A DNA stretch of 32,000 nucleotides. Origin: Candidatus Heimdallarchaeota archaeon B3_Heim (GTDB lineage: Archaea > Asgardarchaeota > Heimdallarchaeia > Hodarchaeales > Hodarchaeaceae). The translations under genes and the position numbers were made by a program. The notes under the pieces were generated by a model. The model ran no database searches and was not told the origin of the DNA. It worked only from the letters and a program-made list of their open reading frames with translations. The stretch covers positions 55,218-87,217 of the forward strand of contig NJBF01000014.1 of assembly GCA_003144275.1 (NCBI GenBank), given 5' to 3'. Below, piece after piece: positions 5,754-23,182 of the stretch (position 1 is its first letter; each line of letters begins with the position of its first letter).

Positions 5754-8252
5754 TTGAAAAAACAGATCAAAGAGAGAGATCCCTTTCCTGAGTTTATCAA
5801 ACACATCACACCATATATTTATAGCATTATTCGGAAATTGAAAGACTCTAGTGGTACTAATTCAGAATCAGAAGTTTTTTTCGAGAATATATTTCTTTCA
5901 GAAAATGTAAATGCAACAGATCAAAAAATTAATTCAATTTCAACTGTTATGGCGGTTTTGATATATGATTGTCTCTGTATAGGATTAAAGACTCTTAAGA
6001 GGGTCGAATTGCTGGGTGAACATTCGTACTTCAATTCAATTCACATGATATTTGATAGAATTACTGAAAAAAACTTAGATATCCCTCTGTTTCACTCACC
6101 AATATTTCCTCTACACTCTCTTATTGAACTGTTCGTATCTAAACCTTATATTTCAAATGAATGTCTAAAATTCCTTTTAGAAAATACTAGCAATTCAATA
6201 AACTATTCCCAAATGAAGTTCCCTTATTACTATGATAGGAGTATCGGGCAAAATAAAATAAAAAACCAAGGCCAAGTTTTTACTCCGATCTCTGTCATAG
6301 ATTTTATTTTTGATCAGGTGATTGTTCCTGAAACTGAGATAATTCTTGATCCTGCAGCTGGTACTGGTGTTTTTTTACTTCGTGCTTTAGAAAACTTACC
6401 CAAGATTGACCTTTCTGAAGTAATAAAAGTAATTGCAATTGAGAAAGATCCGATACTCAGTCTCATATGTGAGAGCGCATTAAAAGTATTTTGCAAATTA
6501 CAATCACAATCAATCGAATGTCAAGTATATAATCAAGATTTTTTTCAAAGTGCCTCTATTTTAAGTGAGTTACGGTCTGAAAAGCATGGAGTTATTGCTA
6601 TTTTAATGAATCCGCCATATACTCGTCAAGAGCTAATTCCAATTAGGGAAAAAGATTTCATAAGGAATAGAGTTTCTTCTACAAGCGTTATTTCGGATTT
6701 TAAACGGAAATACACTTCTTTTCGAGTTTCAGGTCAATCTAGTTTATATATTTATTTCATCCTTTATATTTCTGAGTTTTTAAACCCCCAAGATCGTTTA
6801 GGATTGATTATTCCTAATTCATGGATGGATGTCAGATATGGTTTAATGCTTCAACTTTTCTTATTAGATCATTACAATATTGAATTAATTGTATCCACTC
6901 GTTTAGAAAAGTTAATTCCCTCAGTAGAGGTTAATACAGTTATTTTGACACTTGAAGTAAAGAGTCACATGCAAAGTCTTGAAGTGAGCTCATCCTCTCA
7001 TGAAGTTAAGTTCATCAGAATAAATTCCAAAGCTGATCTCAAGCTCCTTGCTAATTACGGGATCAAAAAGGCACTTCCAATGATTAAGGATAGTGTGTTT
7101 GCATCTGTTATGGAGAGTAAATTACTTCTAGAACCAAAATGGGGAATATTCGTAAAAGCCCCAAGGTATTTCCTTGATTATCTTGATAATACAAAAGATA
7201 ACATGAAATTTTTAAGAGATTATGCCTCAGTTCGCAGAGGTTTTACTAGTGGCGCAAATGATTTCTTTTATGTTGGAAAACCTGGAAGAATGAATAGGTT
7301 TTTCGTTTCCAGTATAGATTTAAAAGATGGAAGTTTAATTTTAAAACCGCAAAACAATGAAATTTTGCATAGATTACAGGAACAAGGTTTTCTTTTAGAG
7401 GAGGAGTCATTTACCATAGAGAGAGAGTATTGGATGCATTCTGACACGAATAATCATGAATTCCAGAAAGAATCAATCCTATATACTACTCCTTATAATG
7501 AAATATGGATCCCAAACTACCTAATAAAATCACCTAAGGAACTTGAAGGATTCAAAGTTACAAGCGAAAATTTAACTTATGTTGTCATTATAATACCTAA
7601 GAAAAGTTCTCTTAAGCTTAAACCAGGAATTAGAAAATATATTAAATGGGGAGAAACATGGAGGCCCATAAAAGGAAACCCCTATGCCTTAAGGACAACT
7701 TGTGCGAATCGTAAATTTTGGTACTCGCTACCTGACGAGTATTATCATTTTTGTCCAATACTTTGCATAATGACAATAAATGACCGCTATCCATTTTTTT
7801 ATAATCCTCATAATTATTATTTTGATGCTCGGTTATATGGCATTACTCCTCTGAGCGAAATAAAAATAAATGAAGAAGATCTGACTACGTTTCTGTTTCT
7901 ATTTCTGAATACTGTTTTTGTCTCAATTCAGATAGAACTATCAGGACGCGAAAATCTTGGAGAAGGAGGACTGGATGTAAAAGTATATGAATATCAAGAT
8001 ATTAAAATTCCACAATTCAAGTTTCTTGGCAAGAAATCGTTCTTGGCCTCGCTTTTCCAAAAAACATTGCTGTCCAAACCCTCATCATATATAAAAAGTG
8101 AACAACCATCATCTAAACAAGAATTAGACCAATTTCTCAGGGAAATCTACTCACTTTCGGACGAAAAAATAGAAAAAATGCATAAATCATTGCAGAAAAT
8201 TGTCCAAGCTCGCATTGATAAAGCTAAGACAGATTTTTCCTACATTTCATGA
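5754..8252 (+). CDS. Large gamma-class N6-adenine DNA methyltransferase (Eco57I/type IIG-like MTase plus TRD), no evident nuclease domain
   Basis: Motif X GQVFTP, motif I LDPAAGTGVF, motif IV MNPPY, then a TRD-like region (RRGFTSGANDFFY). TTG start preceded by GGTGAT at 5745-5750. Confidence 0.87.
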   Translation: MKKQIKERDPFPEFIKHITPYIYSIIRKLKDSSGTNSESEVFFENIFLSENVNATDQKINSISTVMAVLIYDCLCIGLKTLKRVELLGEHSYFNSIHMIFDRITEKNLDIPLFHSPIFPLHSLIELFVSKPYISNECLKFLLENTSNSINYSQMKFPYYYDRSIGQNKIKNQGQVFTPISVIDFIFDQVIVPETEIILDPAAGTGVFLLRALENLPKIDLSEVIKVIAIEKDPILSLICESALKVFCKLQSQSIECQVYNQDFFQSASILSELRSEKHGVIAILMNPPYTRQELIPIREKDFIRNRVSSTSVISDFKRKYTSFRVSGQSSLYIYFILYISEFLNPQDRLGLIIPNSWMDVRYGLMLQLFLLDHYNIELIVSTRLEKLIPSVEVNTVILTLEVKSHMQSLEVSSSSHEVKFIRINSKADLKLLANYGIKKALPMIKDSVFASVMESKLLLEPKWGIFVKAPRYFLDYLDNTKDNMKFLRDYASVRRGFTSGANDFFYVGKPGRMNRFFVSSIDLKDGSLILKPQNNEILHRLQEQGFLLEEESFTIEREYWMHSDTNNHEFQKESILYTTPYNEIWIPNYLIKSPKELEGFKVTSENLTYVVIIIPKKSSLKLKPGIRKYIKWGETWRPIKGNPYALRTTCANRKFWYSLPDEYYHFCPILCIMTINDRYPFFYNPHNYYFDARLYGITPLSEIKINEEDLTTFLFLFLNTVFVSIQIELSGRENLGEGGLDVKVYEYQDIKIPQFKFLGKKSFLASLFQKTLLSKPSSYIKSEQPSSKQELDQFLREIYSLSDEKIEKMHKSLQKIVQARIDKAKTDFSYIS

Positions 8253-8265
8253 AAATTCAAATTCA

Positions 8266-10866
8266 TTATTTATTTAGGAAGGATTCAATTTCTGAGATTT
8301 CCTTTTTTGTCAGATTGTATAACTGATAGATTACTCGATCAATTTCTTCAATTAAAATATGTTTTTTTTCACTCGGTGAGTTTTGAATTTGTCTTGAAGC
8401 AGTTACTATGTCAATATACTTCTGAGAATCACGGGGTGGTAATACCAGAGGTAGATTTCGAATTTGAAGTGGATAATAATCATACATTCCTCCCAAGTCT
8501 TTAAACATACACCGAGCATAAAACGTAAGTGTTTTTGAATTCAATAAGGCTACTAGGAATAGTAAAGTGTTTGTATCGTTGTAATCTTCGTTAGGGATAA
8601 TCCAAACAACATCCTTTGAGGAAAGACAACCTTGATCATCAATCGCAAAAGTATTCCTCCTTGCTTTGTAGGGGGTAACAATCTTAACTCCTTGCCAATC
8701 CATAGTGTTCCGTTCATCTCCATCTCTCCAGAGGTAATACTTAGTAACTCTACTTCTGTTTAGAAGGTCATCTTTATTATCTTTCAAATACTGATAGGCA
8801 TTCTTTGAATTTCTAATTTGCTCGTGACGAAATTTTGGAGCATATAAGACTTCCATTCCTTCTCGCTTTATGAAAAATGTTTTTATCTCCCCCCCTTTTA
8901 ACCATGGTCTATAGTGAGAGGAATTAAGACGTAAACGCATAGAAAAAAAATAAGGAACTTTGGGAGCAAAAACTTTATCACAACCAGTTTCTATACCTTT
9001 GCTGAGTGATGATATTTCATTTAACCTCCAATTTGACATTCTGATTATTTTTTCAATGGTCTTCTTGGTGTTAAGAGAATACAATGTCCATTTCTCAGAT
9101 TTTAGTCCAATTTGAGATATTTTTTTTCCTTTAATATCCTCAAATTTTGTTTTAGAATACTTATAAGCATGAAGTTCTTCATTAGACGTCCATTTTTTAT
9201 TTTTTAGCAGCATGAAGCAAGTTTTAATATTGATTTGAGGGAAGATAAGCAATTCGTTAAAGTCATGGATTTCAAGGAGAGTTGCTCTACGTATGATAAA
9301 TTCTCTAATTTGCTTAGCATAAACACTGGAAAGAACAGATTTAGGTAAAAGAAATCCTAACACTCCATAGGGACTCAAAATTTGCATCATTCTTTTAGTA
9401 AAGAAGTAGGATAGATCACTGTTTCCGCTATAAATTTCAGGATATATTTTCTTAATCTTTAACCGGGTAACCATTGATAAATCAGTTAACGCTATAAAAG
9501 GAGGATTTCCGATAATAATATGGAATTCTGGGGGAATTTCAGGTTCCTTTATATGATCATTTACAGGAAAACACCAAGGTGTGAGGTCACCAATCAGACT
9601 TTCATTCTTTTGCTGAATTTCGTTGGGAAAGACTATATAAGTATCATTTGATGGACTAAAGTAATCGGATTCTGAAAAATGTACTTTTTTCCTAATGTCC
9701 TCCTCTAAATAGCTCTTACATTCATTCCACTCACGTTTTGTTCCTTCTATAATGAAATAATAAGCATTCATAACTTTGCTAAACTTTCTGTGATAGTCAT
9801 TAATGATTAGAGTTTTTTCATAAAAGGATGATTTAGATGGAAGCTTGTAAACCCCTATTTTCCTATCGAAAGCAGAAGAGTGTTCTTTTCTTGCCTTCGC
9901 TCTGACTTTTGCACTCGACAGTAAGTGATTTTCCCTGTCATTATAACCGAATAAGGAATCTCCTAGATAAATATTGTCAGCTAGATCCCCATACGGCTCG
10001 ATTTCTGACATCCAATCTTCTAATATCCATAATCGTAACTTTATTTTAGTGATGAAGATACCGATAGGATCTTTATCAAACCCATAAAGATTGTGCTCAA
10101 GTATTCTCTTTCGTAGATTAAGAGAGGAGGAATCTAGATCTTTTTTCCTGAAAATACCATACAAAATATTGCCTGCAGCAATTAAAAAGGTGCCTGTTCC
10201 AACAGTAGGATCAAGAAGATATATTTTTTGATTCTTCTTTGTTCTAGTTCCTGATTGTGAATTTATTTTCCACCACTGACCAATTGTCCTTTGGGCTATT
10301 TGCTCAGCGAGGTAATAAGGAGTGTAGACTATTCCATCAATTTTTTTTTCTTCTTCCCCGTATTCTCTTAAAAAATTTGCAATTCTGTCAAAAAGATCAA
10401 AATTTATTGCAGTTAAAGATGAGTCATTTAGACTACTATGATTTTTCTGAAAAAAAGAGTCCTTTAATATCGTTTCAGCATAATCCCCCCAATCTACCGT
10501 CTTTAAAATCTGTAGTTCATTGGCTAGAGGTTTGTTGTAATAGTCAGTAACCTGATCCTGACTTGGTAGAAGAGGAAAATATTTGTTTAATTGAAGGATA
10601 ATGGCATAAGGATCATCAAAATAAGAAAATACCTCTTTCCAGTTCTTAAATTCGTAGTTTAGCGTCTTATTGATATTTTTTATACCAAAGAACATCAGAG
10701 TGATAAAATGAAGAACTAATAAATCCTTAAACCATTGGTTCGAAAAATAGGATACAGAAATTTCAAGATCAAGATGTTTAATTTCTTGGATTAATTGTTT
10801 TATCCTGTTTACAACTGAATTCGACGTTCTCTGTTTTGGATTATATCGCTTCAGCTGAAAAGACAA
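8266..10866 (-). CDS. Second large gamma-class amino-DNA methyltransferase with a TaqI-C-like TRD, no evident nuclease domain
   Basis: GIVYTP, LDPTVGTGTF, IIGNPPF, DLSYFF, KGIETGCDKVF, C-terminal EEIDRVIYQLYNLT. TTG start with GGAGA upstream. Confidence 0.87.
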   Translation of the reverse strand: MSFQLKRYNPKQRTSNSVVNRIKQLIQEIKHLDLEISVSYFSNQWFKDLLVLHFITLMFFGIKNINKTLNYEFKNWKEVFSYFDDPYAIILQLNKYFPLLPSQDQVTDYYNKPLANELQILKTVDWGDYAETILKDSFFQKNHSSLNDSSLTAINFDLFDRIANFLREYGEEEKKIDGIVYTPYYLAEQIAQRTIGQWWKINSQSGTRTKKNQKIYLLDPTVGTGTFLIAAGNILYGIFRKKDLDSSSLNLRKRILEHNLYGFDKDPIGIFITKIKLRLWILEDWMSEIEPYGDLADNIYLGDSLFGYNDRENHLLSSAKVRAKARKEHSSAFDRKIGVYKLPSKSSFYEKTLIINDYHRKFSKVMNAYYFIIEGTKREWNECKSYLEEDIRKKVHFSESDYFSPSNDTYIVFPNEIQQKNESLIGDLTPWCFPVNDHIKEPEIPPEFHIIIGNPPFIALTDLSMVTRLKIKKIYPEIYSGNSDLSYFFTKRMMQILSPYGVLGFLLPKSVLSSVYAKQIREFIIRRATLLEIHDFNELLIFPQINIKTCFMLLKNKKWTSNEELHAYKYSKTKFEDIKGKKISQIGLKSEKWTLYSLNTKKTIEKIIRMSNWRLNEISSLSKGIETGCDKVFAPKVPYFFSMRLRLNSSHYRPWLKGGEIKTFFIKREGMEVLYAPKFRHEQIRNSKNAYQYLKDNKDDLLNRSRVTKYYLWRDGDERNTMDWQGVKIVTPYKARRNTFAIDDQGCLSSKDVVWIIPNEDYNDTNTLLFLVALLNSKTLTFYARCMFKDLGGMYDYYPLQIRNLPLVLPPRDSQKYIDIVTASRQIQNSPSEKKHILIEEIDRVIYQLYNLTKKEISEIESFLNK

Positions 10867-12110: not shown

Positions 12111-15100
12111 ATGGCAAGTTCAGGACAAGATCGCGGTGTGAGTTTTGGTTATCGTTCATGGTTTAAACCATTTCGATATAATCAACAGCTAATTCAACCC
12201 ATCTTTATTTTGGACTATGAAGCCACTAGTAGAAAAGAAGATGCTTATGAACCTTACTTTGATTCAGAGGATAGTTACGAATCGGGTAGTAAAAAAAGGA
12301 CGATTAATGGTGTTCAGATATATTTTCTTGATGAAGAGCATAACAAACGAAGTGCTTTCTTACGGCACGCACCTTACTTCTATCTGCTAATAACATCTGG
12401 TTTAACGAATAATCAAGTAAATCGCATAATAGCTCGGATTCAGGAGCTGGGGGAGGATAAAATTGTTATGGTCACAAAGGAAAAATGTCACGATGCTGCT
12501 GATCTAACTTTTCTTGTAACTAAGGACTTTCTTAAAGTGACTGTCGATCATCCTAGGTCTGTTCCTAGCTTGAGATCCCAGTGTGAAAAAATAAAAGGTA
12601 TCATTGAATGGAGAGAAGCTGATGTCTTATATAATCATCGAGTAGCTATTGACCATAATATTAGAGTGGGCTCGTGGTATCAAGCTGATATTAATGGAGG
12701 AGAAATTCACAAACTCGATATCTTAAATAATATGGCCCCTCCAGATCTTCAAATTCTTGCTTATGATATAGAAACTGTTTTTGATCAAACTCGTGAACCA
12801 AATCCGAATCGTGATGCAATTTCCATGATTTCATTATTCACGGGCAAGATAAATCATCTGATAATAAATGACGATGTTGTAAACACGAAAGAAGTCTCAG
12901 GCATTGATATCGTGTTGATGCAGAAAGATGAAGATCATTCAAAGCCTTGGGTTGATTGGTGTAAGACGGGCACAACATTTCCTAACTCTTTACTTATTGA
13001 TCGAGTACCAGTAGAGGTACAAGTTTTCAATAATGAACAACAGCTTCTTCATCGATTTTACGAGATAATTGAGGATTACAAACCGGATGTACTGGCTGAT
13101 TTTTTTGGTGATCGTTTTGACATTCCATTTTTAGCTGTTCGCTCATTACTTTACAATATTTCTCTTGAGAGAAGAACTGGTTTTCGTATCAAATTCAAAC
13201 GGGAGTCAACAGGACAAAATACAGGACCCATTGATCTTAGAGAAAACTATTCCCCTGCTAGAATTGATTCAGTGTCGGGAGCAGGAATAATTCATCTTGA
13301 TGCATTTTTATTCAACGAAAAATATAGTTACTTACCTAAAAAAGACTTAGGACTGAAACCGAGTGTTGAAAAGAAGCTTAAGATAATTCCTATTGGTCGG
13401 GAGGCACTTTTTGCAATCGAAGAAAGCCCCGTTGATGCAGTAGGATATGCAGCGTGTGACGGCTATATTACTTACCGGTACGTGAAAGAAATTGTATTAG
13501 ATTTCTTTATTTCCTTGGGACAAATGTTTCCTGTTCCATCGTCAGAATTATTAACACGTCGTGCTGGTTCGCTTGATGATTTGTTAATTGATGCTGAAGG
13601 TCATCATTACAACATAGTTGGAAAACGTCGTATCGATCAAAAACATATTGAGTCTTTCTCTCCTAATATTATGATTGATTCCTTTGCATATACAGGAGGA
13701 CTTGTTGAGGCGAGACGTTCAGGTATTTTTCGAAGTGACATTTATAGGGAAAACAAAACCAATAGAAAAGCATTAACTGAGATCAAATCGCTTATACAGC
13801 AAATTATTGTAAAGAACAGTAAAGATATCGCGAAGAGGGAAATGAAAAACCAATTTGATAGAAAAGTGTTAGAGAAATTTGGTGGTTTATCGATTTCCTA
13901 TTCAGATGACCTAGAACAGTTATTTCAGAATTTTTTCTTAGCTTTACAAGATAAAGGGGTATCTAAATCGCTTTTTGAAGAGAAAAATGATATCTTGCGC
14001 AGTATACTTGAGGATCTTTCCAATATTCGTGTTGAGGGAGTTGAAAAAGTCGTTGAAACTACGCTGAAGCAAGTCGATAAACTTTTGGAAACAACTGGTG
14101 ATGTTCAGCTAAGGGGTGTACATGTAGATGTCACTTCTATGTATCCTTCGCAAATACGTCAATATAAACTTCAGCCTTCAGGTATTGTACCTCTATCAAA
14201 GTGTCAAGTATGTGAATATAGAGAAAATGATGATAGTTGCTTTTTTGAAGGGGACTGGGTAATTAAACTTACCGCTCGTAGACCATGCAAACATAGAGTA
14301 AAGGGATCATCAAAATGTGATCCCTCAATATGTACCACTAAAAATGCATCTTCGTGTAAAGAGTATGAACCAGAACAAGCTACAACTGGGCGAGTTCAGG
14401 AAATATTTTCTTATAATGGTTCTCAAACACAAGCTTATGTGTTGAGAAAAAAGTCAGGATTTGTCAAAATACCGTTAAGTAAATCATATTTAGGTAAAAA
14501 TTTCACCTCTGTTGATCCCTATAATGAAATAACGAAGTGGTTAGAGCATGCAGTAGAAGCAACTCAACTTGGAAGCCATTTAGATAGAAACTTCTTTGAT
14601 ATTTTTGAAGATCAACCAAAATTATTTCAGCTTCCTAAGAATACATATCTAAGTATTGATGTTAGGACAAAAAAGATATCTGTTCTCATTTCTGTTCAAT
14701 CGCGAGTGTGCCAAAAAGCTTTCAATTTTGTAGCCCGAATTATGGATGAATTTTTCAATACACGGGTTAGACATAAATTTGAAGCGCAGCGATTAAAACA
14801 AGTTATCAAACAAAGAAGTGTTAATAATCAGCCAGTTTCACCAGATATGCTTCGTCAACAAAAATTTCATGATAGTACACAGCTAGGCATGAAAGTTCCA
14901 TTAAATAGCATCTATGGTTTATTAGGGATGCGTGGTGGGGTAAGAAATGCCAGCACGCCGTGCGCTGGTATTACTACAAAGTTATCTGCTGATTTAATTC
15001 ATTGGGCTGCAGACCAATTAGAAGATATTGGAAATGTAACAGAGCTAGATACCGATGGAGTTTGGTTATGGGTTCCTAAAGAATTTCCCCTTGATTTTCC

Positions 15101-16535
15101 GGTTACATTGATAAATCCTGTAGAATTAGATGAAAAACTTGAGTTTCGAGTGAGTCTCATTGATAAAATATTAAATGAGAAGGTGTCTAAGGCTGGTTTT
15201 AAAAATGACAACTATTGGATAAACGATGGGGAGAAAATCAAAAAGATCAGTAAAAGTTTAATTCAATTCGAGCAAGATGGACCTTATGATTTTCAATTTG
15301 TCATGGGAAAGAAGAAATATATAGTTTATAATTATCTATCACAGGAGAACAAGTGGGAGGAAGAGGAGATTACAGGGTTGGAATCAAAGAGAGCAGATTT
15401 TTCAAAGTTACAAAAACACTTTCAGGAAGAAGTCATAAAAGCGTATCTAGAGCAGTATGATCCAGTTCATCCCATTGCATTGGAACAGATTTATCAAAAC
15501 GCCTTTAAGGCATCGGATAGAATAAGAAAAGAAGTAATGGATGGGAAAATAGATCCATCATTTTATGTCAAACCTAAGGCTCTTAACAAAGACCTAAAAG
15601 AATATAAGTCAAAATTACCTCAGGTTACTGCAGCCTACATTTTAAAGGATCTTGGTTATTCCATTGATCCAGGAATCCGTATCCAAATGGTTAATATAAA
15701 GGGAAACCACGTTATCCCTGCTCAGGTATTTGATTTTGATTTTAAAAAGGTTAAATCTGTCTTCATTAAACATGGAATATGCACATTAAGTTTTATGCTG
15801 AATGAAATTACCTCGATCGCAGATATCCAACAATTAATCGATACGAAACAGTATTTGAAAGATATTTACGACCCTGGTAGAATTTTTGATCGAATGATAC
15901 AATATCCGATGAAGAATCAACAAATTAAAACAGAAGATCAGCATGTTCTCGATATCCAAGAAATTGAAATCGCCGAGAAAAAGAAAATCCTTGAACAAGA
16001 GTCGGAAGAAATAGGAAAATCACCAGCCAAATCTTCTTCAGTAGAAGGTAAAGTACCACTCCCTCGGCCTGTACATATATCAACCAGATCACGGTTGAAA
16101 AAGTCTAAAAAGAAAAAAGTCAAAACAAAATCTCTTGATACAATTTTTAATTTTCCAAAAGCAGCTAAAGCTCAACCTAGTCAGCGTCGGAAAAAAATTA
16201 TTAAGCCTACTAAGCCTGTAACAAAACCCTCCCTAGGGAATAAGTTAATGAAGACTATACTTCATAATGAAAAGGGGCTAAGTTCTCCTAAATCTGGTTT
16301 GGTAAATTCTAGTAAACAAAAATCAACTTTAGTATCGACTGATGAAATTGAGGAATTAGAAGAAAAAGAGTTGTTTACTAATGGTAATAAAATTGAGGTA
16401 AAATCATCTTTTTCTCAAGTTGATGTGCAAGCGGATGAAGAAATCGTATGTAGCCTGTGTGGGGCTTTCATAAGTCCTACAGAAGTCATTGATGAAGGGT
16501 GTATCTATTGCCATGACCAACCAGTTACTGAATGA
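12111..16535 (+). CDS. polB: Family B DNA polymerase, DNA polymerase epsilon catalytic-subunit-like
   Basis: Pol2-like N-terminus (YFLDEE, PYFYL, HRVAIDHNIRVGSWY); ExoI YDIET, ExoII GDRFDIPF, ExoIII YAACDG; YTGGLVE..SGIFRSD; region II HVDVTSMYPS; region III KVPLNSIYG; region I ELDTDGVW; FEQDGPY; KKKY; CysX cysteines at C698/C701/C710/C867. Confidence 0.93.
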   Translation: MASSGQDRGVSFGYRSWFKPFRYNQQLIQPIFILDYEATSRKEDAYEPYFDSEDSYESGSKKRTINGVQIYFLDEEHNKRSAFLRHAPYFYLLITSGLTNNQVNRIIARIQELGEDKIVMVTKEKCHDAADLTFLVTKDFLKVTVDHPRSVPSLRSQCEKIKGIIEWREADVLYNHRVAIDHNIRVGSWYQADINGGEIHKLDILNNMAPPDLQILAYDIETVFDQTREPNPNRDAISMISLFTGKINHLIINDDVVNTKEVSGIDIVLMQKDEDHSKPWVDWCKTGTTFPNSLLIDRVPVEVQVFNNEQQLLHRFYEIIEDYKPDVLADFFGDRFDIPFLAVRSLLYNISLERRTGFRIKFKRESTGQNTGPIDLRENYSPARIDSVSGAGIIHLDAFLFNEKYSYLPKKDLGLKPSVEKKLKIIPIGREALFAIEESPVDAVGYAACDGYITYRYVKEIVLDFFISLGQMFPVPSSELLTRRAGSLDDLLIDAEGHHYNIVGKRRIDQKHIESFSPNIMIDSFAYTGGLVEARRSGIFRSDIYRENKTNRKALTEIKSLIQQIIVKNSKDIAKREMKNQFDRKVLEKFGGLSISYSDDLEQLFQNFFLALQDKGVSKSLFEEKNDILRSILEDLSNIRVEGVEKVVETTLKQVDKLLETTGDVQLRGVHVDVTSMYPSQIRQYKLQPSGIVPLSKCQVCEYRENDDSCFFEGDWVIKLTARRPCKHRVKGSSKCDPSICTTKNASSCKEYEPEQATTGRVQEIFSYNGSQTQAYVLRKKSGFVKIPLSKSYLGKNFTSVDPYNEITKWLEHAVEATQLGSHLDRNFFDIFEDQPKLFQLPKNTYLSIDVRTKKISVLISVQSRVCQKAFNFVARIMDEFFNTRVRHKFEAQRLKQVIKQRSVNNQPVSPDMLRQQKFHDSTQLGMKVPLNSIYGLLGMRGGVRNASTPCAGITTKLSADLIHWAADQLEDIGNVTELDTDGVWLWVPKEFPLDFPVTLINPVELDEKLEFRVSLIDKILNEKVSKAGFKNDNYWINDGEKIKKISKSLIQFEQDGPYDFQFVMGKKKYIVYNYLSQENKWEEEEITGLESKRADFSKLQKHFQEEVIKAYLEQYDPVHPIALEQIYQNAFKASDRIRKEVMDGKIDPSFYVKPKALNKDLKEYKSKLPQVTAAYILKDLGYSIDPGIRIQMVNIKGNHVIPAQVFDFDFKKVKSVFIKHGICTLSFMLNEITSIADIQQLIDTKQYLKDIYDPGRIFDRMIQYPMKNQQIKTEDQHVLDIQEIEIAEKKKILEQESEEIGKSPAKSSSVEGKVPLPRPVHISTRSRLKKSKKKKVKTKSLDTIFNFPKAAKAQPSQRRKKIIKPTKPVTKPSLGNKLMKTILHNEKGLSSPKSGLVNSSKQKSTLVSTDEIEELEEKELFTNGNKIEVKSSFSQVDVQADEEIVCSLCGAFISPTEVIDEGCIYCHDQPVTE

Positions 16536-16799: not shown

Positions 16800-19025
16800 A
16801 TGGAAAATATCCAAAAATTACAGAAATATGGCTCATTAGAAAGCTTTGCACTTGATCAAACAGAAGAATTTCTTCGACCAAAGACCCCCCTAGATTATAT
16901 TTTTACTCTTGCACTCATTTTCTGGTGTATTGTAGCTGTGATATTTTCTGGTGATTCACCTATACGAGCAACATTATTTGGACTTGTTCTCATTTTATTT
17001 TTCGTAATTCCTATTTCTAAATTCTTTTCAAATGATGAGAGAGATATTCCTTCCCCACTTAATAGGGCGGTGAAAATACTCATCGGATTTCTCATCATTA
17101 ACATTTTTTCGTCAGCCTCTGTCACTTTTGAACTCTGGGATATGAATTTTCCAGATTTAACGTATTACGAATTTGAATCTTTGATGGCGTGCATTCTCAC
17201 TCCACTAGCAATTATTTGGAATAGATTCGATTTGAAAACCTTACAATTCGGCTATTTTTATTATGTTGGTGAAGTATTCCGTGGTTTTTGGATAGCTACT
17301 ATAGTCATTTTCATATTAAAGGGTTTTTCCATCCCGTTTTTACCTGCAAGTTTCAATTTCGAATTAGAACTATTACTTCTTGCTGCTCTCACATTTAATA
17401 TCCTCGGGATTATTCTGCCTGGTAACTCACCAAGACAAAATGTTTCAATAAATACTCTTCTACGTCAGAATTTTGCACTGAAGAATAGAGTAGAAAGGAT
17501 TCGTGATGGATTCCTCTCTTCATCTGTAATTCTACTGGCATTCTTGTGGCTTGGTTGGATAGTAAACAGAAAAGAAGTCATTCAATATTTAGCGTTTTTC
17601 TTCTTGATAATTGGGGTGTTACTCTTATTGGCACCTCAAAGAAAAAGAACTAATGGGCTAAATTCAGTTCTTAATTCGCTTACAGGTAAGATTGTTGATC
17701 CTAACAGTCAAGTTGGTAGTCGAATTAATGAATTCGCAAGTGCTATTCAGGAAACATCCTTTGAGAAACCTGCACGAGTTTTTACTATCCCAACAGATGA
17801 CATGAAGATAATAAGCAAAGGTAAAACGTCCATTTCAGCTAAAAAAGGGGTAATAGCGGTCCCTACTGTTACAGAAAAAGGAACAACTCTTGTTTTAATG
17901 GGAAAATCTGAGGTATCGACAGAAACAGAAGAACAAGAGGTGTCTACCAAAGAAGTCGATGGCACAACAACAGTCTGGGTTCCACCTGAAGAATGGGATC
18001 AGATTAAACTTCAGCTCCAATCGAAAAATGTCAGTGAACTAACTGAAAATGAGTTAATGTCTGCAGGCCTTGATTCAGCTTCTGAATTATTCACTAATGT
18101 CAAACAAGCAATATCTCAATTAAAAGACTGGAAGGGCCCTCAAGGGATTTTTTCTTCGGTATTTGATACAACTCCATCAAAATATACCATCACAGAAACT
18201 AAAGATTATACATTAGTACGATTACCAGGAATCTTTGTTTTTGAAAAGCTCGGAGTTGAGCTTGTTCAGATATTAGGAGGAGTAGTTCAAGTTGTAGAGA
18301 TAAAAGGGGTAGGAGAATATGTCAAAATTCTCGGAGGGTTGATTACCGTTTTGGAAACTCCCGATTACTCCTTCGTACAAACACCATTTGTGTCTGTATT
18401 GGAAACTCCTGCAGGGGAAATTGTAAAAGTTTTTGGTATACGTATACAAGATGGAGAAAAAATAGATTTGAACAAAGCTCGCAAAGAAATTACGATGGCT
18501 CAAGAAAGGTTTGATAGCCTCTTTACTGCTCAAGTGGAAACTCTTTTCTCAGGCGAAATGCCGAATTTGCTGTTAACAAACTCTGAGGGGGAAAAGGAAG
18601 GTTTCTTAATTGGTGACTCTGAATATCTAAGTGATCAGGATGTACAACCAAAACGAAAAAGCAGAAAAGAAGATACAAAATCAACTTCCTCAAAGAAGAT
18701 AATAGGCCCTTCAGTTTTTACAAAAACAATTACTATAGGACCACAGACTGACCAAAAAACCGAGGAAAAACAAAAAATTCAGCCAGTAGAATATCAGTAT
18801 GATGAGGAGGGTATTCCAATTGATCATCCCGAGCTTTTATCATTGGATAACGATCTAGCTCAAGTTGAGGATTCTTTGGAAAAAGCAGATGAAAAATTTC
18901 TTAATGACGAAGTATCAGATCAAAAACATGAGGAAATCATTAAGCGATTAACACTGAAAAAGTCTAGAATAACAAAAGAACGGGAAAAATTAGTGGAAAA
19001 AATCAGGTTAAGATTTGTTGATTAA
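16800..19025 (+). CDS. Hypothetical membrane protein: ~8 N-terminal TM helices, soluble region with beta-hairpin-like repeats, C-terminal helical hairpin
   Basis: About eight hydrophobic segments in the first ~280 aa, five 16-19 aa repeats at 18198-18456, and a charged helical C-terminus. Confidence 0.8.
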   Translation: MENIQKLQKYGSLESFALDQTEEFLRPKTPLDYIFTLALIFWCIVAVIFSGDSPIRATLFGLVLILFFVIPISKFFSNDERDIPSPLNRAVKILIGFLIINIFSSASVTFELWDMNFPDLTYYEFESLMACILTPLAIIWNRFDLKTLQFGYFYYVGEVFRGFWIATIVIFILKGFSIPFLPASFNFELELLLLAALTFNILGIILPGNSPRQNVSINTLLRQNFALKNRVERIRDGFLSSSVILLAFLWLGWIVNRKEVIQYLAFFFLIIGVLLLLAPQRKRTNGLNSVLNSLTGKIVDPNSQVGSRINEFASAIQETSFEKPARVFTIPTDDMKIISKGKTSISAKKGVIAVPTVTEKGTTLVLMGKSEVSTETEEQEVSTKEVDGTTTVWVPPEEWDQIKLQLQSKNVSELTENELMSAGLDSASELFTNVKQAISQLKDWKGPQGIFSSVFDTTPSKYTITETKDYTLVRLPGIFVFEKLGVELVQILGGVVQVVEIKGVGEYVKILGGLITVLETPDYSFVQTPFVSVLETPAGEIVKVFGIRIQDGEKIDLNKARKEITMAQERFDSLFTAQVETLFSGEMPNLLLTNSEGEKEGFLIGDSEYLSDQDVQPKRKSRKEDTKSTSSKKIIGPSVFTKTITIGPQTDQKTEEKQKIQPVEYQYDEEGIPIDHPELLSLDNDLAQVEDSLEKADEKFLNDEVSDQKHEEIIKRLTLKKSRITKEREKLVEKIRLRFVD

Positions 19026-19059: not shown

Positions 19060-21000
19060 TTATGAGATGATTAATGCTTTTAGATCTGAAATTATTGCCT
19101 CAATTTGATATTTTGATTCAGCTAAAATGAATAGATCATTTTTCAATTGCAATTTGCGAATTCGATCCCTCAGAACTTTTTGAATTTCGTCCTGGGAGTC
19201 TAATGCGTTATTTTCAGCCCATTCTATTAATAATGTAACTGAACGGGTGAAATATTCTACCGTTTCCCTTTCTTTTTGGTTCATCAGGGATACTAAACCT
19301 GCGTTATGATATATTGTACTACTCCGTCTCCAACTAATCAGTGCGTTGGTCAGAGACCGATTTCTTTGGTTTAAGATAGAATCTGTCTCCTCCATATTTG
19401 ATAAAATTTCAAATGCGGTGTAAAAATTGCTCGCAGCTTCTTCAAAATTTTCTATATTAAAGGAATTGTTTGCAAAGAGAATTAACACAGGAATTAATTC
19501 AGTTGCAGGAGCTTTGGCAATAGTAAGTAGTTTTTTTGATCGGGAGAGACAATCTCTGGATAGTAAATAGTGATTTTTTTCCATTTCAATCCGTCCAATT
19601 TCATAAGTTATCAACCCTAACAATCGTTGTAGAAGTTCATCGCATTGATCTTCAGGAAGGATGGAAGCAGCATTATTTAATAATGATAATTTTGATTCTA
19701 TATTTTTTACCGTTTGAGCACCATCATACAACGTTTTAAGAGCTGATTGGAAATTGTCCACACGTTTAAATAATGAGGAAGCATGTATTACAAGAGTTAT
19801 TCCTTTGTTTTCATTTTCTAAGGAAAAATATACTTTAGCAGCTAGCATTAAAGATGTAGCAGCTTCCTCGAGCCCTTCATCACTCTTTTTAAGGAAATCA
19901 GCAGCTCTGATTCTTTGTTCAGCAGATTTACGCGTCAAGCCGAGGGCATATGCTGGATTTTCTAGTTTTTCCTTTTCCGCTTGGAGCATTAACTTACTGG
20001 CATATGTCGAAGTATATCTTGCCGCAATCTGACTATCAATTTCTTCAATCAACTTTACTGCTTTCTCAAAACATCCGTTTGCTTCTTCAAAATGATTGAG
20101 ATCTTGATATACTAGTGCCATATCATACTGTATTGAAGCTTGCGATTTAGGGTCTTTTATCCAGACAGCTCCACTTTGAAACAATTCAATTGCATGATCA
20201 TTATCACCTAATTGATACGCCATTTTTCCTGCTAAACAGAAAGCCTGTCCTGACTTTTGAAAATCATGAGCTCTAGAGAAAGCATCAGTAGCTTGTTTGA
20301 AAGCATTTTGTGCATCTTGGAAGTTGTTAGCGGCTTGGAAAATGTTCCCAGATAAAATAAATGCTTCACCCGCTGCTTTATCATCAATATTTTCTAACCG
20401 ATTAGCCACTTTCATAGCTGTCCAAAGTTGATTACGATCTTTGAGTTTATACCATGCCTCACTTGCTGTTTGTAAATCTTTAAGGGCACGAGGAATAGCG
20501 TAATCCGAATCTATATCGGTAGGATCAAATTGGGGTTTTTTCAACGGAGGGTCGCTAATTGAATCTGTAATTTTTTGCCATACTAATCTTGCATTAAAGG
20601 CATCTTTTTCTTCCTTTAATATATCTAAATATGTAAAAATATGTGTATCAAGATGTGTATTTAAAAGATTTGCACTGTCGTGTTTACCAATTATAGCTAG
20701 AAAAAATGGTCGTTCTTCTCCACGAATTGAAGGATCAAACCATGCATCAAATGCCACTCGGGCGAGAATATTTTGTCCTAAACTCAACAAAGGAACACTA
20801 AATTCAGTCCTCTGAGATTGGCCATGTTGACCAAAAACTGTTACTGAAGCTAAATATATTTGTAATGCTATTGATTCAGGGTCGTCGAAAGCCAATGGAT
20901 ATAGAGAAATTATCGATGGTCCCGAGATGTCGTCCCATAGAACCGCTAATATCACATGGTTAAACTGCTGCATATCAAAATGAGGTGAGCTTTCGGACAA
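19060..21000 (-). CDS. uDENN/longin-like N-terminal domain fused to alpha-SNAP-like TPR repeats
   Basis: N-terminus ILAVLWDDISGPSIISLYP ... DPSIRGEERPFFLAII, then helical repeats such as AAGEAFILSGNIFQAANNFQDAQNAFKQA. Start is TTG 21000 (abutting the upstream stop) or ATG 20973. Confidence 0.75.
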   Translation of the reverse strand: MSESSPHFDMQQFNHVILAVLWDDISGPSIISLYPLAFDDPESIALQIYLASVTVFGQHGQSQRTEFSVPLLSLGQNILARVAFDAWFDPSIRGEERPFFLAIIGKHDSANLLNTHLDTHIFTYLDILKEEKDAFNARLVWQKITDSISDPPLKKPQFDPTDIDSDYAIPRALKDLQTASEAWYKLKDRNQLWTAMKVANRLENIDDKAAGEAFILSGNIFQAANNFQDAQNAFKQATDAFSRAHDFQKSGQAFCLAGKMAYQLGDNDHAIELFQSGAVWIKDPKSQASIQYDMALVYQDLNHFEEANGCFEKAVKLIEEIDSQIAARYTSTYASKLMLQAEKEKLENPAYALGLTRKSAEQRIRAADFLKKSDEGLEEAATSLMLAAKVYFSLENENKGITLVIHASSLFKRVDNFQSALKTLYDGAQTVKNIESKLSLLNNAASILPEDQCDELLQRLLGLITYEIGRIEMEKNHYLLSRDCLSRSKKLLTIAKAPATELIPVLILFANNSFNIENFEEAASNFYTAFEILSNMEETDSILNQRNRSLTNALISWRRSSTIYHNAGLVSLMNQKERETVEYFTRSVTLLIEWAENNALDSQDEIQKVLRDRIRKLQLKNDLFILAESKYQIEAIISDLKALIIS

Positions 21001-22782
21001 TTAGATAATCTCCATGAATTTAAGTTTAAGATGTCTGATGTCAATTAAAGCCTTTTTAGAATCTGAACTAGTTTCTAGCATTTGGATTTCCTTGACATTC
21101 TTAATCTCAATCGTAGGTGATAGAGGTGTAAATGATTCTTGGCCAGACATACGTATAATTATGAAAATTTTTTCTTTTGACTCCAAATTCCAGGTTAAGA
21201 GAGAATTTGATTTTTCTCGAACTATGGTCGGCCGAAGATGTATTGGATCAACAAGAGATATACTATAATCAAGTGGTATGCGATCAATTAACGTGATTTC
21301 ATTGGTTGACATATTTTCAATTGTATACATCCAAATGTACTCACAATCAAATGAATCTATAAGTGGTTGTGAAATTTTATTACAGGTGAGTTTACCTGGA
21401 TCAGTTTCAACTTCAGTTATATAGTGGCGAGTTAACGGTTTCTCCTTAAAAACATAATTTGAGGAAAAAGTATCACCAGGGGGTAGATTACTAAATATCC
21501 ATCTAAATAAAGTTGAATCATGTGTTGGAATCCTAACAGGACGAATTTTTTGAGGAGAATACGCTTGATTCACAACTAATTCTGGAGGGATAACGTCTTC
21601 AATCAGTATTTCTTGGATAGCTCCTCCTGTTGTATTAACGAAGTTCAATTGAGCCTCTAAATTCTGATGCAAGGAATGGTATAAATTCAAAACTACAACT
21701 TGACGTTCTTTTCGGAGTATGATCGATCTTTCTACTCGTTTACGTAACACATACTCAATGGTGCCTGTTTTTCCTGGGATCAGTTTTTCAGCTTTCCAAG
21801 TGAATACTGTTCCTTCCTTTGTTTTTTTTCTGTTGTTTAATTCAAAATCTGTCTGGAAATCGACTACTTCCCACCTATATGGAATTCGATCTACTACTTC
21901 AATATCTACGAGGTCTTCTTCGTATTCATTTGTAATTTCCGTTTTAGCAGCATATTCGAGGTCTAAAGTGTCAGTAACATTCATACGTTCTGTAGAAGGT
22001 GCTTCATCTTGTAAATGTTCTGTATCTTCAACTTTTGAGTCTAATTTTGACTCCGTTTCTTTATCTGCCTCCTTTACTTTATTGATGCTGATTTTAGGGT
22101 TAATAGATGATCTTGGTGACAAAAATTTTGTTTCTCCCCTTTGATCTTTTACTACAGCATCACTTCTTATTTTCTTGTCTGATTTTTTTCTTACATTTTC
22201 CGAGACTGCAGCTAATACTGCGAAGGAATTCATTTTAGAGGGATCATCAGTCTTTAATTGAGGGACAATAAAATCTTGACGATTGAAATCAATATCAGTA
22301 TTATTCACATAATCACCGTCATCAAGAGGTAATAAATCTTCTTCTTCCTCCAGAGGTAATATCTTGATATCTGGAAGCTCTTCCTCAATATCAGTATGAG
22401 CAGATTCATCCTCTTCCTGAATGTTTTCCTCATCTGCAGATATTTTTCGTTCTAGGGCATTTAATGCCATCTTAAATTGATAAGTTGCAGAAGTAAAACC
22501 ATATTCTTTTCCCTTATCGACAAGAATTTTCGCTGTTTCAATATCTTCAGTCATTAGATGCCTAACGATAGCTTTTCCATAACAACTGGCAGCCTTATCC
22601 ATTTTCTTAATTTCTAGATAGAAATCTCCAGCAATGGTTAGATATTGGCCTGCTTTTCTTCTGTTACCTTTTGAATCGAAGCATTTAGCTGTTGATTCAT
22701 AGATTTCTGCGGCAATCACCAGAGAGTGGCTAGTAGCGGTTTCAGCTTCCGTTGCTAATTGTTCACAACTTATTTCTGTCAT
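21001..22782 (-). CDS. SNAP-like helical N-terminus, acidic disordered linker, three DUF11-like Ig/beta-sandwich domains
   Basis: AAEIYESTAKCF...KAASCYGKAI; a D/E-rich linker; three ~100-aa units marked by IEVVDRIP, ILIEDVIP and ITLIDRIP, each with a downstream F/L-x-W. ATG 22782 preferred over TTG 22812. Confidence 0.75.
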   Translation of the reverse strand: MTEISCEQLATEAETATSHSLVIAAEIYESTAKCFDSKGNRRKAGQYLTIAGDFYLEIKKMDKAASCYGKAIVRHLMTEDIETAKILVDKGKEYGFTSATYQFKMALNALERKISADEENIQEEDESAHTDIEEELPDIKILPLEEEEDLLPLDDGDYVNNTDIDFNRQDFIVPQLKTDDPSKMNSFAVLAAVSENVRKKSDKKIRSDAVVKDQRGETKFLSPRSSINPKISINKVKEADKETESKLDSKVEDTEHLQDEAPSTERMNVTDTLDLEYAAKTEITNEYEEDLVDIEVVDRIPYRWEVVDFQTDFELNNRKKTKEGTVFTWKAEKLIPGKTGTIEYVLRKRVERSIILRKERQVVVLNLYHSLHQNLEAQLNFVNTTGGAIQEILIEDVIPPELVVNQAYSPQKIRPVRIPTHDSTLFRWIFSNLPPGDTFSSNYVFKEKPLTRHYITEVETDPGKLTCNKISQPLIDSFDCEYIWMYTIENMSTNEITLIDRIPLDYSISLVDPIHLRPTIVREKSNSLLTWNLESKEKIFIIIRMSGQESFTPLSPTIEIKNVKEIQMLETSSDSKKALIDIRHLKLKFMEII

Positions 22783-22798
22783 TATTGATTCTCCCAAC

Positions 22799-23182
22799 CT
22801 ATTTAATCGCAACGAAGGTAGATTTTATAATCAACACTTCGGAAACTCGTGGTGTATAGTCATCTAACGGATCTTTATCATCATAAGGAATTTCTTGGAA
22901 TGTACGGGAGAAAATTACCCAGGCAACTCTTTTATTATCACTTGTGACAAATCGTTTTATTTTTTGATACGCATCCTCTGGTTCATCTTGAAAATATTTG
23001 ATAGACAAATCTTTTACTTTTTGCAGAGAGGTTTTTTCCTGATCTTGTGCATATAAATGCATACTTTCTAACAGATCGGCTTCTTTTGGATTTATTTTTT
23101 TTTCTTTTAACATTTCGACTATTAAGGATCGATTTGTTAAAGAATTCTTTGCCTCTGCAAAAGTTACATTGATAAATGGCAT
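22799..23182 (-). CDS. Hypothetical protein, first gene of the three-gene cluster
   Basis: 127-codon ATG ORF ending 16 nt before the next ATG; no motif recognised. Confidence 0.7.
   Translation of the reverse strand: MPFINVTFAEAKNSLTNRSLIVEMLKEKKINPKEADLLESMHLYAQDQEKTSLQKVKDLSIKYFQDEPEDAYQKIKRFVTSDNKRVAWVIFSRTFQEIPYDDKDPLDDYTPRVSEVLIIKSTFVAIK

Follow-up and report, generated by a model that had tools for sequence, protein, structure and literature searches.

A FLCN/SMCR8-class longin domain fused to a tetratricopeptide-repeat solenoid, and its three-gene operon, in a family of Hodarchaeales

Longin GAPs and the longin-TPR protein

The eukaryotic longin GTPase-activating proteins (GAPs) are heterodimers of longin domains that are followed by DENN or NPRL C-terminal domains. 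In the GAPs for Rag GTPases, which are FLCN-FNIP2 (Lst7-Lst4 in yeast) and the NPRL2-NPRL3 pair of GATOR1, the catalytic arginine is in a longin domain. In the C9orf72-SMCR8-WDR41 complex, which is a GAP for Arf, Arg147 of SMCR8 is seen as the arginine finger for Arf1, pointing at BeF3 (PMC8213707). A GP motif together with an arginine finger is specific to FLCN, NPRL2, SMCR8, and C9orf72; these features are absent from other longins, including those of adaptin, TRAPP, and DENND, and W33-D34 of C9orf72 has been named as essential (Traffic 2025, PMC12290439). The same study reported Heimdall-group longins with both the GP motif and the arginine finger, and Liu et al. (2020) described “NPRL2-like longins” whose relatives are fused to receiver, PAS, kinase, or GTPase domains (bioRxiv 10.1101/2020.10.19.343400). 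The longin class and its likely role as a GAP are already published. Here we describe a gene from Candidatus Heimdallarchaeota archaeon B3_Heim that joins a longin domain of this class to a long solenoid of tetratricopeptide repeats (TPRs). The gene lies on the reverse strand of a 32,000-nucleotide stretch of DNA (“the window”; contig NJBF01000014.1 of assembly GCA_003144275.1, positions 55,218 to 87,217). The available text of the two papers mentions neither such a fusion nor the three-gene operon in which we found it.

We modelled the N-terminal domain (residues 10-160, numbered from the TTG start codon at 21000) with AlphaFold2, using an alignment of 17 sequences. The model has a predicted local distance difference test score (pLDDT) of 84.4 and a predicted TM-score (pTM) of 0.80. 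In the model’s own numbering, its elements are strands at 6-14 and 18-25, a helix at 32-47, strands at 56-61, 69-79, and 87-97, and helices at 98-125 and 128-140. This beta-beta-alpha-beta-beta-beta-alpha-alpha topology is the longin order.

When this model was compared to the PDB with Foldseek, the best match was 8yqg (E = 8e-5), a longin domain that comes from a Roadblock-Longin protein of Lokiarchaeota. Next to it at the top of the list were the Lst4 longin and chains from three complexes: GATOR1, FLCN-FNIP2, and the active FLCN complex. Structural alignment with VIA-align gave Z = 13.9 for 8yqg (rmsd, the root-mean-square deviation, was 3.0 over 132 residues), 11.2 for the Lst4 longin, 10.5 for the FLCN-FNIP2 complex chain, 10.1 for the GATOR1 chain, and 9.6 for C9orf72-SMCR8. 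The best solved match is 8yqg; its partner domain is a roadblock and not a TPR, and the identity is just 13-16%. VAMP7, roadblock, MglB, sedlin/TRAPP, SNARE longins, and sigma-adaptin have Z of 7-9. The nearest structures are the GAP longins (Lst4, FLCN/FNIP2, NPRL2, SMCR8, and C9orf72), above VAMP7, sedlin, sigma-adaptin, and roadblock. Similarly, SMCR8, NPRL2, LST7, DENND6, and C9orf72 led the list when we searched the Swiss-Prot part of the AlphaFold Database (AFDB), and the ESM Atlas’s own model of the protein had TM-scores of 0.66-0.73 to its neighbors (0.71 for SMCR8-like proteins, 0.67 for NPRL2-like proteins, and 0.73 for a Heimdall cluster that is partly annotated as Folliculin). SMCR8 was the top structural match in both of these searches. 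As judged from the predicted structure, the head is a longin of the FLCN/SMCR8/NPRL2 (GAP) class. We also considered whether the head might be an adaptin-sigma or COPI-zeta longin, and rejected this: those longins have Z of 7.5-8.9, compared to 9.6-13.9 for the GAP longins, and they lack the GP motif (PMC12290439).

The conserved residues of the head point in the same direction. A profile search of 1.84 billion representative sequences found 184 relatives. When 41 diverse relatives were aligned, W, D, G, D, R, and G proved to be invariant or nearly so, and no other position did. In a set of 209 relatives, W22 is conserved in 191 of the 192 that align there, G27 in all 192, and P28 in 176 of 192, while D85 is found in 192 of 209, R93 in 202 of 206, and G94 in 187 of 209. 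The Arg-Gly of the hairpin is the family’s most conserved feature. G27-P28 are residues 18-19 of the model, at the very beginning of strand 2, and R93-G94 are in the loop between the model’s strands at 69-79 and 87-97. These are the positions of the GP motif (before strand 2) and of the beta4-beta5 arginine in the Asgard FLCN/SMCR8-type longins, which are from the Heimdall group as well (PMC12290439). A GP motif and a hairpin arginine are also what the domain has in common with SMCR8. In the AFDB search, the aligned ranges place G27-P28 near G68-P69 of SMCR8 and would allow R93 to fall at R147. A profile of the 41 relatives aligns to C9orf72 with E = 0.7, which is not significant and is useful for the register only: W-D falls on W33-D34, G-P falls on G38-P39, and the archaeal R-G falls on N-G.

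In SMCR8, the longin is followed by a DENN domain, and it is the longin of its partner C9orf72 that supplies W-D. In contrast, a single archaeal domain has W-D, G-P, and R-G, and TPRs come after it. In other words, by these alignments, signature residues that are divided between the C9orf72 and SMCR8 subunits in eukaryotes are united in one archaeal domain.

An initial annotation, made from the sequence alone, had described this N-terminal domain as FLCN/SMCR8-like, with the elements in longin-type order, and had singled out the hairpin Arg-Gly. The peptides that it quoted are all present in the translation of the gene, and the modelled topology, the structure searches, and the conservation across the family each bear out what it said of the head.

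The rest of the protein is predicted to be one continuous solenoid. The AlphaFold2 model of residues 161-646 (pLDDT 93.9) has 22 helices, arranged in hairpins, over about 480 residues. The initial annotation had called these repeats alpha-SNAP-like. The tail does match Pfam’s SNAP family (PF14938) at 28.9 bits, which is above the 25-bit cutoff, but only residues 209-345 align, to positions 33-170 of the profile (138 of 282 positions). Generic TPR families score higher: 41.2 bits for TPR_2 (E = 1e-10) and 37.5 bits for TPR_12 (E = 3e-9), and TPR_16 and TPR_8 are above SNAP as well. When a profile of the tail was compared to PDB sequences, designed consensus TPR proteins came first (E = 1e-37); alpha-SNAP was the best natural match (E ~ 5e-7), with CDC23 and TONSOKU about equal.

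The structural comparisons gave a similar picture. Foldseek matched the tail to CTR9, SPY, TONSOKU, OGT, and LGN/Pins, and its 50 best matches include no SNAP; the matches in AFDB were TTC28, kinesin-light-chain-related proteins, and OGT. VIA-align gave Z = 27.0 for Pins and 25.8 for LGN, versus 19.6 for gamma-SNAP (rank 6) and 18.6 for Sec17 (rank 11). All of these proteins (LGN/Pins, OGT, SPY, CTR9, the SNAPs, and Sec17) are all-helical hairpin solenoids like the tail, but what they share with it is no more than the TPR fold, with 10-16% identity, and none of them has an N-terminal longin domain. SNAPs are twisted helical sheets that end in a globular helical bundle. The solved SNAP chains have 292-313 residues, compared to about 480 in the tail, and an architecture of SNAP size is absent. 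On the predicted structure, the tail is an ordinary TPR solenoid. It does have TPR-like hairpins in common with SNAPs, but this resemblance is not a specific one. We set aside the alpha-SNAP identity because generic TPR structures and profiles match equally well or better. The helical repeats of the initial annotation are there, and its SNAP label is not specifically upheld; searching the two parts separately led to the GAP longins for the head, as it had expected, and to generic TPR proteins for the solenoid.

Gene family, operon, and small GTPases

The longin-TPR gene is a genuine conserved gene. According to the list of open reading frames and the translation, it has 646 uninterrupted codons, counted from the TTG. 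A search for homologs of the protein found 66 full-length matches, with 93-29% identity, and one of these is from Heimdallarchaeota LC_3. All 66 are from Hodarchaeales or other Asgard archaea of the Heimdall group. In an alignment of 19 sequences, the mean column identity is 54%, and the conservation is strongest in the first 100 residues or so. We found an ortholog of about 645 amino acids in all 16 of the sampled genomes from the source organism’s family. No ortholog at E of 1e-10 or better turned up among the samples from other families of the class, and the weaker matches in another family have other architectures. Judging from these searches, this is a core, single-copy protein of one family of Hodarchaeales, and it is universal in the sampled genomes.

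The TTG is probably the true start codon, because the 9-residue N-terminal extension that it adds is kept in close homologs, because one homolog (P0010) has no methionine where the internal ATG falls, and because a GGAG lies 9 nucleotides upstream of the TTG, which itself abuts the stop codon (TAA) of the upstream gene.

The gene comes last in a compact trio that encodes proteins of 127, 593, and 646 amino acids. Gene 1 ends at 22799, gene 2 starts at 22782, and gene 2’s stop codon (21001-21003) is immediately followed by the TTG at 21000. BLASTP checks found the same order (small, large, longin-TPR) at four divergent loci from the Heimdall group: L002, from a closed genome of Hodarchaeales type; L003, from Heimdall LC_3; L016; and L017, which has different flanking genes. 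The orthologs of gene 1 have 127-141 amino acids, come first in the trio, and are 57% (L002), 32% (L003), or 40% (L017) identical to it; L016 has a 138-amino-acid gene in this place. The gene 1 protein matches no Pfam or NCBIfam family. The gene 2 protein has a TPR/SNAP-like helical head of about 120 residues (the match to Pfam’s SNAP has E = 0.021), which an acidic low-complexity linker connects to a beta-rich C-terminal region of about 300 residues. Identity in the head and the tail falls as low as about 31-35%, with both still conserved, while the middle varies, so that the total length ranges from about 590 to 1067 amino acids (1067 in L017). The ESM Atlas models of the two operon neighbors are poor (pLDDT 0.53 for gene 1 and 0.56 for gene 2), and they gave weak leads only, namely DUF11-type sandwiches for gene 2 (with low TM-scores) and a Thorarchaeota cluster that is annotated as SNAP. 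In L003, a DDE transposase gene (6653-7843) on the opposite strand has inserted between gene 2 and the longin-TPR gene.

We counted the architectures of 145 representative relatives, with a Pfam check on ten of them. An Arf-family GTPase domain is in the same chain in 25 of the 145. Most of these are Arf-longin proteins, often followed by PAS and histidine-kinase modules, and nearly all of the relatives with histidine kinases have an Arf domain immediately before the longin. Another 23 are receiver-longin proteins, and 17 are longin-TPR proteins. These architectures match the fusions described by Liu et al. (bioRxiv 10.1101/2020.10.19.343400). The Arf-longin-PAS-kinase relatives retain the conserved arginine. 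In the longin-Arf fusions P0079, P0080, and P0082, where the longin is N-terminal to the Arf domain, the arginine is replaced by E, T, and Q, respectively.

The source genome (3.9 Mb, 94% complete, G+C of about 35%) has about 48 matches to small GTPases. Of the Arf-family matches, the two best are at G000:C57:2912-3424 and C91:24920-25414. The initial annotation had spoken of “host” small GTPases; the GTPases in question would be the archaeon’s own. The genome has two loci of the GAP-type longin class: the longin-TPR gene and one other. The other locus (G000:C87:16437-16826, also L005; E = 9e-5) is on another contig, inside an open frame of 8821 codons that would encode a giant protein. In L016, two unrelated genes separate the trio from a gene for a 183-amino-acid Arf-family GTPase (602-1153) that is found about 2.2 kb upstream of it.

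The trio’s surroundings are partly conserved. A gene for a family-B DNA polymerase of about 1430-1570 amino acids adjoins the trio in 4 of the 5 loci and is convergent with the longin-TPR gene. Between the polymerase and the trio, both the window and L002 have a gene of about 740-750 amino acids (in the window, it is at 16800-19025 and its N-terminal half is hydrophobic). The window also has convergent genes for restriction-modification methylases of the Eco57I/N6_Mtase type (5754-8252, forward strand, and 8266-10866, reverse strand), and a similar gene flanks the L002 locus. Besides the polymerase, archaeal-type genes in the window include HMG-CoA reductase and an Lrp/AsnC regulator. A tRNA scan of the window found none. 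Among public sequencing runs, no RNA run is listed as containing the operon; the runs that do contain it are DNA metagenomes from marine sediment and cold seeps, where it makes up small shares.

Table 1. Coordinates of the longin-TPR gene, its parts, and nearby genes (in the window unless another locus is named)
Feature	Position	Strand	Details
Longin-TPR fusion gene	19060..21000	-	646 amino acids from TTG at 21000, or 637 from ATG at 20973; stop codon 19060-19062
GAP-type (FLCN/SMCR8/NPRL2-class) longin domain (predicted), residues ~15-150	20551..20958	-	AlphaFold2 model, Foldseek and VIA-align, ESM Atlas neighbors
W22-D23 and G27-P28 motif (WDDISGP), beta1-beta2 hairpin	20917..20937	-	Translation, alignment of relatives
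beta4-beta5 hairpin FDAWFDPSIRGEER	20710..20751	-	Candidate arginine finger R93 (codon 20722-20724), then G94; translation, model, alignment
Linker between longin and TPRs, residues ~151-168	20497..20550	-	Variable; pLDDT ~51-56 at the end of the N-terminal model; poorly conserved columns
TPR-type alpha-solenoid (predicted), 22 helices (11 hairpins), residues ~169-646	19063..20496	-	AlphaFold2, Pfam TPR matches, structure matches
Operon gene 1, 127 amino acids	22799..23182	-	No known family; orthologs in L002, L003, L017
Operon gene 2, 593 amino acids from ATG (603 from upstream TTG)	21001..22782	-	Weak SNAP match; BLASTP orthologs
Family-B DNA polymerase gene	12111-16535	+	
Family-B DNA polymerase gene, L002	12367-16650		
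Family-B DNA polymerase gene, L003	9917-14638		
Family-B DNA polymerase gene, L016	7977-12389		

Proposed function and its alternatives

From the fold, the motifs and their conservation, the Arf fusions of the relatives, and the operon, we infer that the protein binds a GTPase, and we extend this to catalysis, to the identity of the substrate, and to a complex. Most likely, the protein is a GAP, or at least a binder that is specific for one nucleotide state, for an Arf-related or Rag-like GTPase. Somewhat better than an even bet, in our judgement, is that it acts as a scaffold-anchored GAP with an arginine finger. The longin head would bind the switch face of the GTP-loaded GTPase, and R93 would enter the nucleotide pocket and speed up the hydrolysis of GTP. 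The TPR solenoid would serve as the docking site through which the head is kept in a larger assembly. The most likely partners there are the two other products of the operon, though other proteins might dock as well, and this docking might localize or gate the activity of the head.

Several observations weigh against a GAP. No small GTPase gene adjoins the longin-TPR gene, either in the operon or elsewhere in the window. Unlike FLCN-FNIP2, GATOR1, and the other eukaryotic longin GAPs, which are longin heterodimers, the archaeal protein has no evident longin partner (the operon has just this one longin gene), and it has no DENN or NPRL C-terminal domain (there is no Pfam match to DENN or dDENN modules after the longin, and that region is TPRs instead). 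Scans against Pfam and NCBIfam found no family for the N-terminal domain and did not reach Pfam’s longin, Folliculin, or NPR2 models. The Folliculin (PF11704) and NPR2 (PF06218) models did not match the protein even at E up to 0.1, and just 1 of the 41 diverse relatives touches PF11704 (E = 0.0013). Also, a profile of the head’s orthologs hit nothing but noise among the PDB sequences. The equivalence of R93 to R147 of SMCR8, R164 of FLCN, and R78 of NPRL2 is a candidate that draws on aligned ranges, the position in the hairpin, and the weak alignment to C9orf72, rather than on a residue-level superposition. Finally, the longin is also used in signalling contexts, as seen in the relatives that combine it with receiver, PAS, or kinase domains.

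Instead of being a GAP, the head might be a non-catalytic platform for a GTPase, either an effector or an exchange factor, with the TPRs recruiting partners and the arginine serving for structure or for binding. Mon1-Ccz1, TRAPP, the uDENN domains of DENN proteins, Ragulator, and MglB-type roadblocks are the systems to compare: most longin and roadblock domains serve as parts of guanine nucleotide exchange factors (GEFs) or as platforms, and DENND6, AVL9, DENND11, Mon1-Ccz1, roadblock, and MglB chains are also in the lists of structures that resemble the head. Furthermore, the longin domain has persisted in the three longin-Arf fusions that lost the arginine. On the other hand, GAP longins outranked GEF or platform longins in every structure search, the arginine is nearly universal among the relatives, and the GP motif and hairpin arginine are the very features that were reported as specific to GAP longins (PMC12290439). 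We consider a non-catalytic platform to be fairly unlikely.

The head might also have nothing to do with small GTPases. It could sense a ligand or a partner, much as PAS or roadblock sensors do, as part of a signalling adaptor in which the TPRs are a generic array for binding proteins. This would fit the receiver-longin, longin-PAS, and histidine-kinase chains among the relatives as well as the lack of a GTPase gene in the operon, and LOV and PAS domains are among the weaker Foldseek matches of the head. But their TM-scores are just 0.30-0.37, compared to 0.45-0.60 for the GAP longins, and the relatives with histidine kinases are the ones that nearly always have the Arf domain next to the longin. 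Such an adaptor seems quite improbable to us. As for the solenoid being an alpha-SNAP homolog that adapts Heimdall SNARE-like proteins to a Cdc48/NSF-like AAA ATPase, we find this hardly credible: Hodarchaeales have SNARE homologs that form complexes in vitro (cited in 10.1101/2024.02.28.582541), but the resemblance of the tail to SNAPs is that of any TPR protein in Pfam, the PDB profile comparison, Foldseek, and VIA-align alike, and no result of this analysis points to the AAA/NSF-adaptor role that the initial annotation had proposed.

If we return to the arginine-finger GAP, it can be extended to the whole operon, in a form that we regard as a long shot. The three co-encoded proteins might form one Heimdall-specific, GTPase-controlled assembly that resembles a coat adaptor: a catalytic longin on an alpha-solenoid trunk; a partner whose small solenoid head is joined by an acidic, flexible hinge to a beta-sandwich “appendage”; and a small subunit of 127 amino acids. 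The targets of the longin, at membranes, would be Arf-related GTPases. In this form, the longin would stand for an ancestor of the heterodimeric longin GAPs of eukaryotes that was not yet divided and was possibly a homodimer; we propose this because the W-D of C9orf72 type and the G-P and arginine finger of SMCR8/FLCN/NPRL2 type are in one domain. The Heimdall group is often placed nearest to the eukaryotes among the archaea. Co-folding of two longin heads gave a score of 0.01, which is below the mark, and we counted this neither for nor against a homodimer.

Significance

Our searches of the literature found no description of a longin-TPR fusion or of an Asgard SNAP homolog, which is not proof of absence. 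Nor did we find, in the literature that we searched, the union of W-D, G-P, and R-G in one domain, the universality across a family, or the conserved three-gene operon. The TPR fusion of this longin class and its operon appear to be undescribed.

The eukaryotic longin GAP complexes (folliculin, GATOR1, and C9orf72-SMCR8) govern nutrient signalling and lysosome-linked trafficking. The longin-TPR gene is a concrete, single-copy candidate: all of the known catalytic signatures are in one domain, the scaffold is part of the same protein, and the operon adds two conserved proteins that are candidate partners. With it, a GAP role of Asgard longins towards ArfR/Rag GTPases could be tested on proteins from a single genome, namely one candidate GAP, its two operon partners, and a limited number of GTPases. 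If the protein is only a TPR adaptor, then it would be an ordinary, lineage-specific scaffold. If it has the proposed activity, then switching off GTPases with a longin domain would predate eukaryogenesis.

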